From Gemmatimonadales bacterium (GTDB lineage: Bacteria; Gemmatimonadota; Gemmatimonadetes; Gemmatimonadales; GWC2-71-9), in the NCBI GenBank assembly GCA_035706765.1, contig DASSUS010000093.1:1-53441 (forward strand): 53,441 bases of DNA, written 5' to 3'. The position numbers were made by a program, and so were the translations under genes. Below, piece after piece: positions 33,678 to 49,870 of this stretch. The number at the start of each line of letters is the position of its first letter. The stretch's first letter is position 1. The notes under the pieces are model-generated. The model saw only the letters and a program-made list of their open reading frames with translations, was not told the DNA's origin and made no database searches.

Positions 33678-33754
33678 GCTATCAGCTAGCGGCTATCAGC
33701 TATCGGAACTGCTTTTACCCGATAGCTGGTAGCCGGTAGCCGATAGCCGATAGC
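33678..33754. repeat. tandem-heptamer hairpin (GCTATCR x4 / loop / YGRTAGC x5) filling the gap between two convergent stop codons
   Basis: Left units at 33678-33705 are gctatca gctagcg gctatca gctatcg. The loop is 33707-33718. Right units at 33720-33754 are cgatagc tggtagc cggtagc cgatagc cgatagc. Arms 33678-33706 and 33719-33747 pair over 29 positions: 26 Watson-Crick pairs, 1 G:U and 2 mismatches, counted by eye. Confidence 0.9.
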
Positions 33755-33755
33755 T

Positions 33756-35633
33756 TCACTTGCCCCAACTATTGTTCCCCCGCTCCACATCCGGATAGAT
33801 CCGCTGCGGGTCGATCACCACGCCGACGATCTGCTTCGGTGGCGCTAGGCGATATCTGAATCTGTTGCCGAGATACCACATCTCCACCGGCAGCTCGCGG
33901 CGTTCCGTCGTGCCATCGTTGTAGCGCAGCTCGAGCTGGACCGGCAGCACCATCTGCCCGCGGTTGGAAAGCGTGATGAACGTGCTGTCGCCCTCGCGGC
34001 GCACTTCGTCGACAGCCTGATCGAGGCGGGCGGTGGTGTAGATCCAGTTGCGCCAGAACCAGTCGAGATCGCGGCCCGTCATGTCGGACATCGTGCGGAA
34101 GAAGTCCGCGGGCTGCGGATGCTTGCCCTTCCAGCGCCGGAAGTATTCGCGGAACGCGCGATCGAATTCGTCGCGGCCCAGGACCGCATCCCGTAGCAGC
34201 GTCAGCATCAAGGCCGGCTTCTGATAGGCGTTCCAGTACAGCTGCCGGACTTCATCCGGCTTCGTGATCATCGGCTGTTCGTTGCCCGGCGTCGCGTTGG
34301 TGTTGTAAGCCGTCAGCAGCTCGCGCCGTACGGTGTCGCCGTACGCGGTGCCCTTGAAGAACGCCTCGGCCACGTCGTAGTCCGCGAAGGTGTTGAAGCC
34401 TTCGTCCATCCACGGATAGCGGCGCTCGTCCGAGCCGGCCTGCATCGGGAACCACTGGTGACCGAGCTCGTGGGTCAGGATCCAGAACTGATCCTCGCGC
34501 TTTTGGAGCGAGGGACAGAAGATCAACATCGGGTACTCCATCCCCTCCACCAGTCCCTCGACGGCCGAGATCTGCGGCCACGGGTACTGCCCCAGCGTGT
34601 TGGAGAACTGGCGCAGCGCGAACTTGAGCATCGTGTTCGCTTCTTCCCACGGCGTCGCGTCGGGATGGTAGAACGTCTGGACCAGAATTCCTTCCCAGGT
34701 GCTCGCGTCCCAGCGCAACCCGGCGCCCGCGGCCCACGCGAAATCGCGCACGCCCGGGGCGGTGAATCGCCAGGTGCGCGTCCCCGGCACTTTTCGGGTG
34801 GCGTTCACGACCGCTTCCTGGCGCGTTACGACCAACACGACCTGACCCGGGTTGGTGAACACGCGCGCGAGCCGGGCGCGCTCCTGCGCCGTGCGGACCG
34901 CGGTCGGGTTGGCGAGCGCGCCGGTGGCGGTCACGAGAAATCCCGCGGGCACCGTGAGGCTTACGTCGAAATCGCCGAACTCGAGGTAAAACTCTCCCGC
35001 GCCAAGGAAGGGCAGCGTGTTCCAGCCACGCACGTCGTCGTACACCGCCATGCGGGGATACCATTGCCCGAGCTCGTAAAAGCGCGAGCCGACGCGTCCC
35101 ATCCGGCCGCCGCCGTACGGCGGGATCGGGAAGTGCCAGGCGACGTCGAACGTGATCCCGAGTCCCGGGGCGAGCGGCCGCGGCAGCTGCACGCGCATCA
35201 TCGTTCCGAAGACTTTCGTGCTCAGCTGCCGGCCGGCGGTCGCGAACCGGTCAATCGTGATTCCGCCGGAAAATCCCTTGCCCGTGAAATCGAAGACCAC
35301 GCCGCCGGCGAACTGCAGCGGCGGTTGATTGAGCGTGCTGGAGATCGAGCCCGGCGCGAACAGGTTTTGATCGAGCTGCACCCACACGAACGGGAGCGCG
35401 TCGGGGGAACGATTGACGTAATAGATCCGGCCGCGGCCGCGGAGCACATTGGTGCCCGTGTCGAGCGTGGCCTCGAGCGTGTAATCAGCCCGTTGCTGCC
35501 AGTAGCCCCGGCCCGGCGCGCCCGAGGCGCTGCGAACCGCCGTCGCCGGCGGCAAAGGCAGCGCGCGGAACGGCGACGAGTCGGCGACGGATTGTTGAAG
35601 ACCCAACGTTGCGACGGTCAACAGCACGAACAT
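33756..35633 (-). CDS. M1 family metallopeptidase (aminopeptidase N-like), secreted
   Basis: Contains HELGHQWF plus WMDEGFNTF (HExxH-x18-E). Signal MFVLLTVATLGL. Confidence 0.9.
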   Translation of the reverse strand: MFVLLTVATLGLQQSVADSSPFRALPLPPATAVRSASGAPGRGYWQQRADYTLEATLDTGTNVLRGRGRIYYVNRSPDALPFVWVQLDQNLFAPGSISSTLNQPPLQFAGGVVFDFTGKGFSGGITIDRFATAGRQLSTKVFGTMMRVQLPRPLAPGLGITFDVAWHFPIPPYGGGRMGRVGSRFYELGQWYPRMAVYDDVRGWNTLPFLGAGEFYLEFGDFDVSLTVPAGFLVTATGALANPTAVRTAQERARLARVFTNPGQVVLVVTRQEAVVNATRKVPGTRTWRFTAPGVRDFAWAAGAGLRWDASTWEGILVQTFYHPDATPWEEANTMLKFALRQFSNTLGQYPWPQISAVEGLVEGMEYPMLIFCPSLQKREDQFWILTHELGHQWFPMQAGSDERRYPWMDEGFNTFADYDVAEAFFKGTAYGDTVRRELLTAYNTNATPGNEQPMITKPDEVRQLYWNAYQKPALMLTLLRDAVLGRDEFDRAFREYFRRWKGKHPQPADFFRTMSDMTGRDLDWFWRNWIYTTARLDQAVDEVRREGDSTFITLSNRGQMVLPVQLELRYNDGTTERRELPVEMWYLGNRFRYRLAPPKQIVGVVIDPQRIYPDVERGNNSWGK

Positions 35634-35643
35634 GCGGTTCTCC

Positions 35644-48352: not shown

Positions 48353-48478
48353 AAAAGGCGTCGAGAAAAGGCGTCGAGCAATAACGTCGAGCGAAAACGT
48401 CAAGCGACAGCGTAATGCTAGCACGTCTACACGATTTTGCTTGACGGTTCTTCCAGACGGTTTTTCGAGACGGTCTTA
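48353..48478. repeat. 13-nt-period tandem array (5 units) and inverted 13-nt array (3 units) between the GYD start and the citrate synthase stop
   Basis: Left units at 48353-48417: aaaaggcgtcgag x2, caataacgtcgag, cgaaaacgtcaag, cgacagcgtaatg. Right units at 48440-48478: cttgacggttctt, ccagacggttttt, cgagacggtctta. The last unit contains the gltA stop at 48476-78. Confidence 0.85.
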
Positions 48479-49762
48479 CCGCTTTTCTATCGCCACGTAG
48501 TCCCGCTTACCCGGTCCCGTATATACCTGGCGCGGCCGGGCGATCTTCTGCTCCTTGTCGAGCAACATCTCCTGCCACTGCGCGAGCCAGCCCGGGGTGC
48601 GGCCGATCGCGAACAATACGGGATAGATCGTGACCGGAAACTTCATGGCTTCGTAGATGATCCCCGAGTAGAAATCGACGTTGGGATAGAGCTTGCGCGT
48701 GACGAAGTACTCCTCCTGCAGCGCGATCCGCTCGAGCTCGACGGCGATGTCGATCAGCGGGTTCTTGCCGGTCACGTCGAAGACCTGCTCCGCGATCTGT
48801 TTGATGATCTTGGCGCGCGGGTCGAAGTTCTTGTACACGCGGTGGCCGAACCCCATCAGGCGCACCTCGCCCTTCTTCACGCGCTGCAGGTAGGCCGGAA
48901 TGGCGTCCACCGAGCCGATCTCGCGCAGCATGCGCAGCACTTCTTCGTTCGCGCCGCCGTGCAGCGGCCCGTACAGCGCCGCCGCCGCCCCCGCCATGCA
49001 GGAATAGGGGTCGGGGTGGGACGACCCGATGCTCCGCATCGCGCTGGTCGAGCAGTTCTGCTCGTGGTCGGCGTGCAGGATGAACAGGACGTCGAGCGCC
49101 CGCTCCAGCACGGGATGAGGACTGTATTTCACCTCGGTCGTCTTGAACATCATGTTCAGGAAGTTGCCGGTGTAGCTGAGATCGTTGTCCGGATAGGCGT
49201 AGGGCATGCCGATCGAATGGCGATGCGCGAACGCCGCCAGGGTGGGGGTCTTGGCGATCAGCCGGACGATCTGCGCGTTGCGCGACTTCTCGTCGAAAAT
49301 CTGCTTTGCCTGCGGGTAGAACGTCGACAGCGCTCCCACCGCGCTGACGAACATCCCCATGGGGTGGGCGTCGTGATGAAAGCCGTCGATGAACTTCTTG
49401 ATGTTCTCGTGGATGATCGTGTGGTGCGTGACCTGATAGACCCAGGCGTCGAGCTCGGCCGCGCTGGGGAGCTCGCCGTGCAGCAGCAGGTAGGCGGTCT
49501 CGAGGAACGTGCTCTTTTCGGCGAGCTGCTCGATCGGGTAGCCGCGGTAGCGCAGGATTCCCTTGTCGCCGTCGATGTAGGTGATCGCGCTCCGACACGC
49601 CGCCGTATTCATGAAGGCGGGGTCGTAGCTCATCAAGCCGAAATCGTCGTCCGCCGCCTTGATCTGCCGCAGATCGGCGGCGCGAATCGTCCCGTCCTGG
49701 ATCGGCAGCTCGTAGCTCTTGCCGGTGCGGTTGTCGACGATGCTGAGTGAATCCTTGGGCAC
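48476..49762 (-). CDS. gltA: citrate synthase (type II)
   Basis: Full-length similarity to my recollection of GltA: ...ILRYRGYPIEQLAE..., HADHEQNCSTS, GPLHGGANE and GFGHRVYKNFDPRA. GTG start at 49762, with AGGA upstream. Confidence 0.95.
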   Translation of the reverse strand: MPKDSLSIVDNRTGKSYELPIQDGTIRAADLRQIKAADDDFGLMSYDPAFMNTAACRSAITYIDGDKGILRYRGYPIEQLAEKSTFLETAYLLLHGELPSAAELDAWVYQVTHHTIIHENIKKFIDGFHHDAHPMGMFVSAVGALSTFYPQAKQIFDEKSRNAQIVRLIAKTPTLAAFAHRHSIGMPYAYPDNDLSYTGNFLNMMFKTTEVKYSPHPVLERALDVLFILHADHEQNCSTSAMRSIGSSHPDPYSCMAGAAAALYGPLHGGANEEVLRMLREIGSVDAIPAYLQRVKKGEVRLMGFGHRVYKNFDPRAKIIKQIAEQVFDVTGKNPLIDIAVELERIALQEEYFVTRKLYPNVDFYSGIIYEAMKFPVTIYPVLFAIGRTPGWLAQWQEMLLDKEQKIARPRQVYTGPGKRDYVAIEKR

Positions 49763-49808
49763 TACGCGGATCCTGGATGTGTGGAGGCGAAAAGATAACT
49801 GGATGGAA

Positions 49809-49870
49809 GCTATCGGCCATCGGCTATCAGCTATCAGCTATCGGTTGCCCGATAGCCGATAGCCGATAGC
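49809..49870. repeat. tandem-heptamer hairpin (GCTATCR x5 / CGATAGC x3) in a divergent promoter region
   Basis: Left units at 49809-49843: gctatcg gccatcg gctatca gctatca gctatcg. Right units at 49850-49870: cgatagc x3. A 22-bp stem (49823-44 with 49849-70) contains two A:C mismatches on the plus strand, which become G:U pairs on the minus strand. Confidence 0.9.

Follow-up and report, generated by a model that had tools for sequence, protein, structure and literature searches.

Heptamer-class tandem repeats are known to be over-represented in bacterial intergenic DNA. A later paper attributes the heptamer excess to Mrazek 2007 and the cyanobacterial short tandemly repeated repetitive (STRR) sequences to Mazel 1990. 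Such arrays can be almost exclusively direct, as with the TAACTGA repeats, for which 169 direct sets were counted versus one inverted (MacGregor 2015, PMC4679880). Pairs of arrays in opposite orientation have been described in Xanthomonas and in Geobacter metallireducens. Rehm et al. 2015 (PMC4692102) reported 70-75 convergent inverted GGGAATC array pairs per Xanthomonas genome, able to form stem-loops, which lie near or overlap stop codons at a mean of 28 nt from the upstream open reading frame (ORF). Transcripts often start or stop at these repeats, and array length differs between related species (campestris, axonopodis) while the single or paired type is usually kept; their role is unproven (PMC4692102). 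In G. metallireducens, Aklujkar et al. 2009 (PMC2700814) listed 'putative global regulator binding sites' of classes 1-3, with three to five tandem 7-9-nt units (GTTGCTYN, TCTCCGTS[Y] and MTYCTGA), mostly as opposite-strand pairs at variable distance, and proposed them as IHF/HU sites in supplementary figures only, without comparative or positional analysis. Here, we report intergenic hairpins whose arms are tandem arrays of short units, found in a 53,441-nucleotide stretch of a Gemmatimonadales bacterium (contig DASSUS010000093.1, referred to as the window), and we trace their evolution in relatives.

Tandem arrays were located with Tandem Repeats Finder and their arms with an inverted-repeat search, and RNA was folded on both strands, with z-scores against 200 shuffles. 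Short-period arrays are present at all seven sites of Table 1 that carry repeat units, and inverted arms at five of the seven. At these five, at least two to three tandem units of 5-13 nt are accompanied by reverse-complement copies within ~150 nt, an arrangement that 48353-48478 fits weakly. Folding energies of the five hairpins range from -40 to -76 kcal/mol. Their z-scores span -5.4 to -10.3 for the + strand and -6.8 to -8.7 for the - strand, and no shuffle out of 200 reached such a fold. The stems are 20-45 bp long and consist of repeated units able to pair in several registers, the arms being complementary in register, many spacers included. An initial annotation of this DNA had given all seven sites one hairpin architecture. 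That description is right for five strong hairpins, holds weakly for 48353-48478, and fails for 46707-46749, which is a direct array only. Its other descriptive claims stand: the unit differs between loci, the arms are unequal where it said so (4 vs 6, 5 vs 3 and 5 vs 4, with which Tandem Repeats Finder and unit counts agree), and folding on both strands, a check it had proposed, shows the five sites to be very stable on each.

These elements are a further case of a known, functionally unexplained kind. To call them an unrecognised family, as had been done, was too strong, and the earlier descriptions of similar inverted array pairs in Xanthomonas (PMC4692102) and G. metallireducens (PMC2700814) reduce the novelty of the kind. 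In line with the Xanthomonas / G. metallireducens type of inverted array pair, the window hairpins and the arrays of our wider survey lie between genes and tend towards the 3' side of the preceding ORF. The Xanthomonas pairs are likewise intergenic inverted tandem heptamers close to stop codons, but they are built from a single G-rich unit, investigated for its ability to form G-quadruplexes, whereas here several families that are not of the G-quadruplex type occur, with periods of 7, 8, 10 and 13 nt, in a different phylum and with a documented replacement of one family by another at the same site. Several classes coexist in one genome, as in G. metallireducens, although the unit sequences are unrelated. 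Our elements share with the heptamer-class and STRR repeats the excess of 7-nt tandem units in the intergenic DNA of many bacteria, and differ from the STRR and TAACTGA direct arrays in that inverted pairing is their defining feature. What is new lies in the detail: concerted change of both arms, a family swap inside fixed flanks, and gain and loss. These are seen along a syntenic series, from 3% to ~28% nucleotide divergence, which traces the evolution of hairpin-arranged heptamer-class repeats.

Table 1. Repeat arrays and associated motif in the window
Position	Strand	Feature	Gene context
33678-33754		GCTATCR heptamer hairpin, 4.1 vs 5.1 copies, 12-nt loop	Convergent gap, pntB stop 33675 / M1-peptidase stop 33756
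42889-43004		GACGGTAnnn hairpin, 10-nt spacing, 4 vs 6 units, inner AAAGGG/CCCTTT stem	
46410-46504		AGACGCRC hairpin, two octamers per arm outside, non-repeat inner stem (CAGCGGT...)	
46707-46749	+	Direct array, ~4 octamers (GGACGCAC AGGCGCAA GAGACGCAC AGACGCGC)	Just before DEAD-box helicase start 46761
47955-48050		GACGGTAnnn hairpin, 10-nt spacing, 4 vs 4 units	Convergent gap, DEAD helicase stop 47972 / GYD stop 48049
48353-48478		Degenerate inverted 13-nt arrays, AAAAGGCGTCGAG-type x4 plus imperfect inverse x3	Citrate synthase stop 48476 (-) / GYD start 48351 (-)
49809-49870		GCTATCR heptamer hairpin, 5.1 vs 3.1 units	Divergent gap, citrate synthase start 49762 (-) / 216-aa ORF start 49887 (+)
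49792-49798 / 49875-49881		AT-rich inverted motif AAGATAA / TTATCTT	Brackets the 49809-49870 array

Exact-sequence look-ups of two window proteins gave no record; relatives were reached through homologue searches, and syntenic loci in independent assemblies then through exact-protein look-ups. The loci are L201 (3.2% nucleotide distance), L202-L208 (one population), L209-L212 (12.5-18%), L213-L216 (for the site 33678-33754), and L121 and L122 (~28%). Along this series the arrays stay in orthologous gaps for long, although their evolution far outpaces that of the neighbouring genes. From the window to L201, the array gaps retain 73-87% identity, with indels in addition, against 96-99% for coding DNA (88% in the short GYD gene). 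Copy number, whose comparison at orthologous gaps had been suggested at the outset, differs between relatives at every site.

The GCTATCR hairpin in the M1-peptidase/pntB gap is kept in every relative examined, with units per arm of 5 and 4, 4 and 3.5, or 6 and 4 (L213/L214 and L216 included); the counterpart of 33678-33754 in the L201 strain was not found in the collection, where the best M1 peptidase relatives are at most 91% identical. All close relatives carry the hairpin after the HTH-like ORF 42213-42890, and the orthologues of 42889-43004 in L201, L202 and L209-L212 use GACGGTA, GGCGGTA or GGCGGTC units around different central inserts. Downstream of the PD40-amidohydrolase gene, the inner stem CAGCGGTAAACAG is kept in five of the six close relatives (L201, L202, L209, L211 and L212) with one to three outer units; in L210 the repeat-armed hairpin at this place has another inner stem.

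Changes can affect both arms together. The L201 hairpin downstream of PD40 is made of GACGTC units versus GACGC in the window, and its array upstream of gltA reads GCTATTG / CAATAGC versus GCTATCR / YGATAGC in the window; in L202 the latter array has 4 vs 4 units. Entire families can also be exchanged: the gltA-upstream gap of L209 and L122 holds GACGGTAnnn units, in L209 inside the conserved AAGATAA...TTATCTT flanks. These flanks are kept in every close relative (L201, L202, L209-L212), whichever unit family lies inside. They may be a pair of divergent -10-like boxes, and if so the enclosed array would not be transcribed.

Gain and loss are seen at the remaining sites. The direct array 46707-46749 is present in the window and L201 only, its place being taken by a GACGTCTA direct array in L212 and by a 13-nt inverted array in L121. 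In the 47955-48050 gap, L201 has 1 vs 3 units, and L202 and L211 have variant units; the GYD/helicase hairpin is missing from L209, L210 and L212, where the two stop codons meet or overlap, convergent gaps of 0 nt included. The 13-nt arrays between gltA and GYD occur in the window and L201 only, with different copy numbers. The reverse was also observed. A hairpin of 8-nt GAYGCCAC units lies at 1875-1960 of L122, in the convergent gap between the acyl-CoA dehydrogenase gene and the 216-aa ORF, which measures 6 nt in the window, and 10-nt G[A/G]CGGTA hairpins (L209 4521-4586, L210 4423-4491, L212 4409-4478) lie in a convergent rhomboid / M16 peptidase gap that is near-empty or lacking in the window.

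The position of the elements relative to genes was assessed on genes called from codon usage and GC3. The window, of 67% G+C, has its array sites in two convergent, three to four co-directional and one divergent gap, in agreement with the earlier statement that all three gap types are represented; the other gaps named there as free of such arrays are indeed without them. Counted by gap class, array hairpins occupy 2/2 convergent, 3/6 co-directional and 1/8 divergent gaps. Both convergent gaps are filled by their hairpins (33678-33754 and 47955-48050), which touch or overlap both stops. The first of these folds at -51.2 / -50.4 kcal/mol on the two strands (z -7.3 / -7.5) and the second, which overlaps both stops, at -66.8 / -66.3 kcal/mol (z -8.3 / -8.1). 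Among the co-directional hairpins, 42889-43004 begins directly at the stop of the + strand ORF 42213-42890 (0 nt) and leaves 55 nt to the PD40-amidohydrolase gene (43059), and 46410-46504 begins 12 nt past the stop of that gene (46397) and folds at -76.2 kcal/mol (z -10.3). At 48353-48478, aligned consensus units are complementary at ~9/13 positions and the fold is weak (z -2.4 / -1.0). A consensus scan of the window for canonical hairpin-plus-U terminators gave nine matches versus 11 expected by chance, none of them at gene ends. Inspection of the sites found no T-rich tails after the array hairpins, and a sigma-70 promoter scan of the window found nothing exceeding chance.

To see how widespread such elements are, we surveyed 200 loci: 120 from a pattern scan for three consecutive GCTATCN units in 185,579 species genomes, and 80 metagenome loci fetched via citrate synthase and unselected for repeats. 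Copies were counted in the 53-kb window and in loci of ~20 kb. Triple GCTATCN units occur at no fewer than 120 loci in many phyla, and the taxa among the matches listed are Gemmatimonadota, Acidobacteriota, Chloroflexota, Cyanobacteria, Planctomycetota, Bacteroidota, Verrucomicrobiota and Vibrio. The search for further copies, which the initial annotation had named as a check, thus finds them to be abundant in relatives and in other phyla. In 840 kb of unselected sequence, arrays of at least three copies have a period of 7 most commonly (39), followed by 6 (31) and 9 (20), with diverse units; GCTATCN accounts for 1/39 of the heptamer arrays.

Inverted pairing is well above background. Across the 200 loci, 119 of 595 arrays (20%) have an inverted partner within 160 nt, versus 11 in the reversed and 22 in the complemented controls, i.e. 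2-4%. The unit GCTATCG, found at 33678-33754 and 49809-49870, is a mirror repeat whose complement equals its reverse complement, and the complement control is therefore invalid for this unit. GCTATC arrays have an inverted partner in 12/23 cases in Gemmatimonadota and in 23/119 elsewhere. Folding confirmed hairpins, with z of -3.9 to -9.5, in Verrucomicrobiales, Chloroflexia, Moorena, Desulfobacteraceae and other Gemmatimonadales, and a single 3.7-kb Gemmatimonadales contig holds three different unit families. By heuristic gene calls, the 76 hairpin arrays comprise 38 co-directional, 16 convergent and 6 divergent cases, with 4 apparently intragenic and 12 at contig edges, versus background gaps at the same loci of 122 co-directional : 40 convergent : 41 divergent. 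By our own count, 30 of the 38 co-directional hairpins are closer to the upstream stop than to the next start, typically a few nucleotides off.

Our favoured reading, in which we place about as much trust as doubt, is that these are palindromic minisatellites, built by slippage and arm-to-arm templating, and tolerated or used as U-tract-less transcript 3'-end hairpins. From the patterns at orthologous gaps we infer how they could have arisen. Slipped-strand mispairing would duplicate units inside an arm; changes would reach the other arm by intra-hairpin template switching, by selection for pairing, or by both; and occasional copying between loci would spread a few families with conserved cores (GACGGTA, GCTATCR, GACGC). 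The conserved final codons of the helicase gene, AAG AGA CGG TAG, are one unit of the adjoining 47955-48050 array, which suggests a seed and is compatible with growth from local sequence.

Foldback (FB) transposons of Drosophila have unequal, variable inverted arms made of tandem sub-repeats. Palindromic microsatellites of (A)n/(T)n type are known from Fusarium mitochondria (PMC7218506). Both resemble our elements in their variable sub-repeat arms and in presence or absence between close relatives, with no homology implied; they are unlike them in being eukaryotic or organellar, FB elements being much larger and the Fusarium arrays mononucleotide.

As to function, the hairpins would define or protect transcript 3' ends, by termination or by blocking 3' exonucleases, and would do so in both directions in convergent gaps. 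U-tract-less 'I-shaped' 3'-end hairpins have been proposed for Actinobacteria and high-GC bacteria. Our hairpins share with these, and with 3' stabilisers of the repetitive extragenic palindromic (REP) type, that they are stable, stand directly after stops, have no U-tract and could act both ways in convergent gaps. They are unlike the I-shaped hairpins in having 20-45-bp stems made of repeated units that can pair in several registers. Such a 3'-end function is the most likely one, and its support is positional: stops are abutted, convergent gaps enriched, divergent gaps depleted and canonical terminators absent, to which the Xanthomonas RNA-seq data (PMC4692102) can be added. The list of candidate roles offered earlier was reasonable, and the remark that a pure terminator role cannot cover all sites is correct, given the one divergent-gap site and the relatives' arrays directly before start codons.

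Several observations weigh against this reading. Close relatives lack hairpins in the same gaps, 0-nt convergent gaps included, so individual hairpins are dispensable. Some arrays, one in the window and several in relatives, occupy divergent gaps or stand right before start codons. Within the L202-L208 population (~0.1% divergence) we found no unit-number polymorphism apart from a 1-nt indel, so on that timescale the arrays are not hypermutable contingency loci. In 51 hairpins, with transcription direction inferred from heuristic gene calls, G-U and A-C mispairs show no strand asymmetry (128 vs 138, p = 0.58), and selection on RNA is therefore not demonstrated. The cores are conserved while spacers vary (10, 14 or 15 nt), and the same few families recur at different loci, which would not be expected from structure-only selection plus simple slippage. 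Lastly, neutral elements keeping clear of promoters should show just the same leaning towards stop codons.

The last point leads to the rival that survives best, although we consider it rather unlikely: that the arrays are neutral or selfish palindromic minisatellites at the DNA level, grown by slippage and template switching in promoter-free DNA, with no RNA or regulatory role. Their gain and loss among close relatives, complete absence from some convergent gaps, growth up to and into stop codons, faster evolution than coding DNA and lack of a mispair bias on the RNA strand all fit this view. So does the gltA/GYD gap, which measures 5-9 nt in the other close relatives (e.g. TGA-GGCCGTCCC-ATG) and there already resembles the first unit, a GRCCGYC-like seed. 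The hairpins nevertheless persist, with pairing kept, across 12-18% nucleotide divergence, and the concerted changes of two arms leave the stem intact. Conserved cores imply some constraint, and the frequent transcript starts and ends at the Xanthomonas repeats (PMC4692102) also speak for more than neutral growth.

The conserved cores bring up an explanation that we hold to be unlikely, in which the arrays would be iteron-like binding sites for a DNA- or RNA-binding protein (e.g. nucleoid-associated or regulatory) and the hairpin a by-product of the two orientations. GACGGTA cores stand at exact 10-nt steps, a period equal to the helical repeat of DNA, while the purine-rich spacers of 3-8 nt vary in sequence and length (15-nt steps in L209). 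The core recurs at several loci per genome, and in five of seven genomes all 10-nt loci share a single core variant (GACGGTA or GGCGGTA), which is only suggestive because the tree is nearly star-shaped; promoter-proximal positions also occur. On the other hand, the same architecture is seen with periods of 7, 8, 9, 13 and 15 nt, a family was replaced at one site with the flanks unchanged, the motifs are not enriched outside arrays, and the arms are complementary in register even in many spacers. No candidate protein is linked to the sites, and our analysis was anchored on the core pattern, which by itself accounts for part of the conservation. The combination of conserved cores and changing spacers leaves room for protein binding or for copying driven by a factor. 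The latter possibility, to which we give only a small chance, is that these are self-propagating palindromic minisatellites shared across phyla, whose cores would be recognised by a trans-acting factor (a nuclease or recombinase, or a DNA- or RNA-binding protein) that copies them between gene ends, so that the loci co-evolve.

Very improbable, in our view, is a fourth alternative: non-autonomous mobile elements of the REP/REPIN kind or resembling MITEs (miniature inverted-repeat transposable elements), with a transposase such as a REP-associated tyrosine transposase (RAYT) elsewhere in the genome. Families common to several genomes do occur in different gaps. The 13-nt unit CTCGACGCCTTTT, which in the window lies between gltA and GYD, makes a strong hairpin in L121, 15 nt ahead of the helicase start; L122 has a related 13-nt hairpin after gltA. 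Presence/absence polymorphism and units containing GTAG or CGTC, the tags of the REP super-family, point the same way. Against mobility, the units are not individually palindromic, copies belonging to one family have no loop, flank or terminal sequence in common and no visible target-site duplication, and both the number of units and the length of the arms form a continuum. No transposase or RAYT came up when the called genes of the 53-kb window were all scanned with Pfam, as the initial annotation had noted. Chance similarity or assembly artefact, for which we found nothing in favour, is refuted by the shuffles, none of which folds as well, by the far lower survey controls, and by orthologous arrays in JGI and ENA assemblies made independently at different centres from different samples.

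Membership in described classes was considered separately. REP elements, bacterial interspersed mosaic elements (BIME) and SMAG need a self-folding unit of 20-40 bp, with a 5-13-bp stem and an unpaired GTAG/CGTC head; here the units are of 7-13 nt and not self-complementary, and this membership is rejected, in line with the initial annotation, which did not recognise the elements as such. MITEs should have conserved full-length copies with terminal inverted repeats and target-site duplications, whereas here neither loop nor flank is common to the copies of a unit family, and the gltA/GYD insertion shows no target-site duplication. Canonical intrinsic terminators are rejected, as no hairpin with a U-tract is found at the elements. 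A resemblance of the CCGTCTGGAA units to the Neisseria DNA uptake sequence raised the idea of an uptake signal, which is rejected, as the motifs show no excess outside arrays (observed/expected 2/3.7 for GACGGTA, 10/10.3 for GCTATCR and 3/13.7 for AGACGCRC). CRISPR arrays have 23-50-bp repeats and unique spacers, whereas here 7-13-nt units are contiguous and in both orientations. Known structured RNA families were rejected by Rfam 15 covariance models, with no match at the gathering score in the whole window and none at E <= 1 for 46380-46780. An attC-like reading was dropped by eye, given the syntenic housekeeping genes and with no integrase or GTTRRRY cores seen, and membership among plasmid-type iterons or regulator-binding arrays is held to be unlikely, the conserved cores with variable spacers treated above being indirect evidence for it.

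Next to the hairpins, the ~200-nt non-coding leader before the DEAD-box helicase gene (46505-46706, +) is conserved far better than the repeat hairpins that flank it. It is also found on the - strands of L201 (5595-5790), L202 (12880-13075), L209-L212, L121 (3620-3800) and L122 (5330-5540). Its invariant blocks, AACC..GAGCTGGC, TCCCGCTCAGG and CAGGTTC, are kept even at ~28% divergence. Of the 43 pairs in its RNAalifold prediction, 11 show compensatory changes, and Rfam gives no match even at E <= 1. We regard the leader as a candidate regulatory RNA in the 5'-UTR of the helicase gene. The direct array that follows it, 46707-46749, forms no hairpin of its own (z -1.0 / -0.3) and has the same sense as 46412-46427, the 5' arm of the preceding hairpin. 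The 3' arm of that hairpin (46483-46504) is complementary both to its own 5' arm and to the direct array ~200 nt downstream, and a long-range alternative pairing of 46483-46504 with 46707-46749, enclosing the leader, is possible; the minimum-energy fold retains the local hairpin.

The window genes are ordinary chromosomal ones, among them an ABC/MacB exporter, a TonB-dependent receptor, BlaR/BlaI pairs, pntAB, an M1 peptidase, a PD40-amidohydrolase, a DEAD-box helicase, a GYD protein, citrate synthase and an acyl-CoA dehydrogenase. Citrate synthase homologues with 93-99% identity are labelled Gemmatimonadetes or Gemmatimonadales bacterium and come from metagenome-assembled genomes of soil, which places the window in a soil Gemmatimonadales genome. 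Three conserved ORFs beside hairpins, 49887-50537 (+), 41512-42069 (-) and 42213-42890 (+), have no significant Pfam family, the sole signal in 42213-42890 being a sub-threshold HTH_31. The relatives at ~28% divergence retain 74% identity in the 216-aa ORF that lies divergently from citrate synthase. Two further gaps contain dyads. At 20064-20123 (-), two TACGAAG-nn-CTTCGTA dyads and a short T run stand directly upstream of a BlaI/Penicillinase_R-type repressor gene (19683-20063), and are probably an operator pair, an element different from the repeat-armed hairpins. The AT-rich gap 21280-21362, with two TGCTA...TAGCA-type dyads upstream of a second Penicillinase_R repressor gene (21363-21752), is likely another operator region.

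If the repeat-armed hairpins do mark transcript ends, they would explain how operons are delimited without hairpin-plus-U terminators, by signals arising from a few bases beside a stop codon. Should a trans-acting factor copy them between gene ends, it would continually provide new 3'-end hairpins in bacteria that have no canonical terminators. If they are not transcript-end marks, they would be selfish or structural DNA of a widespread and little-studied sort. In both cases they bring annotation noise and assembly difficulty to soil metagenomes, and also strain-typing markers.

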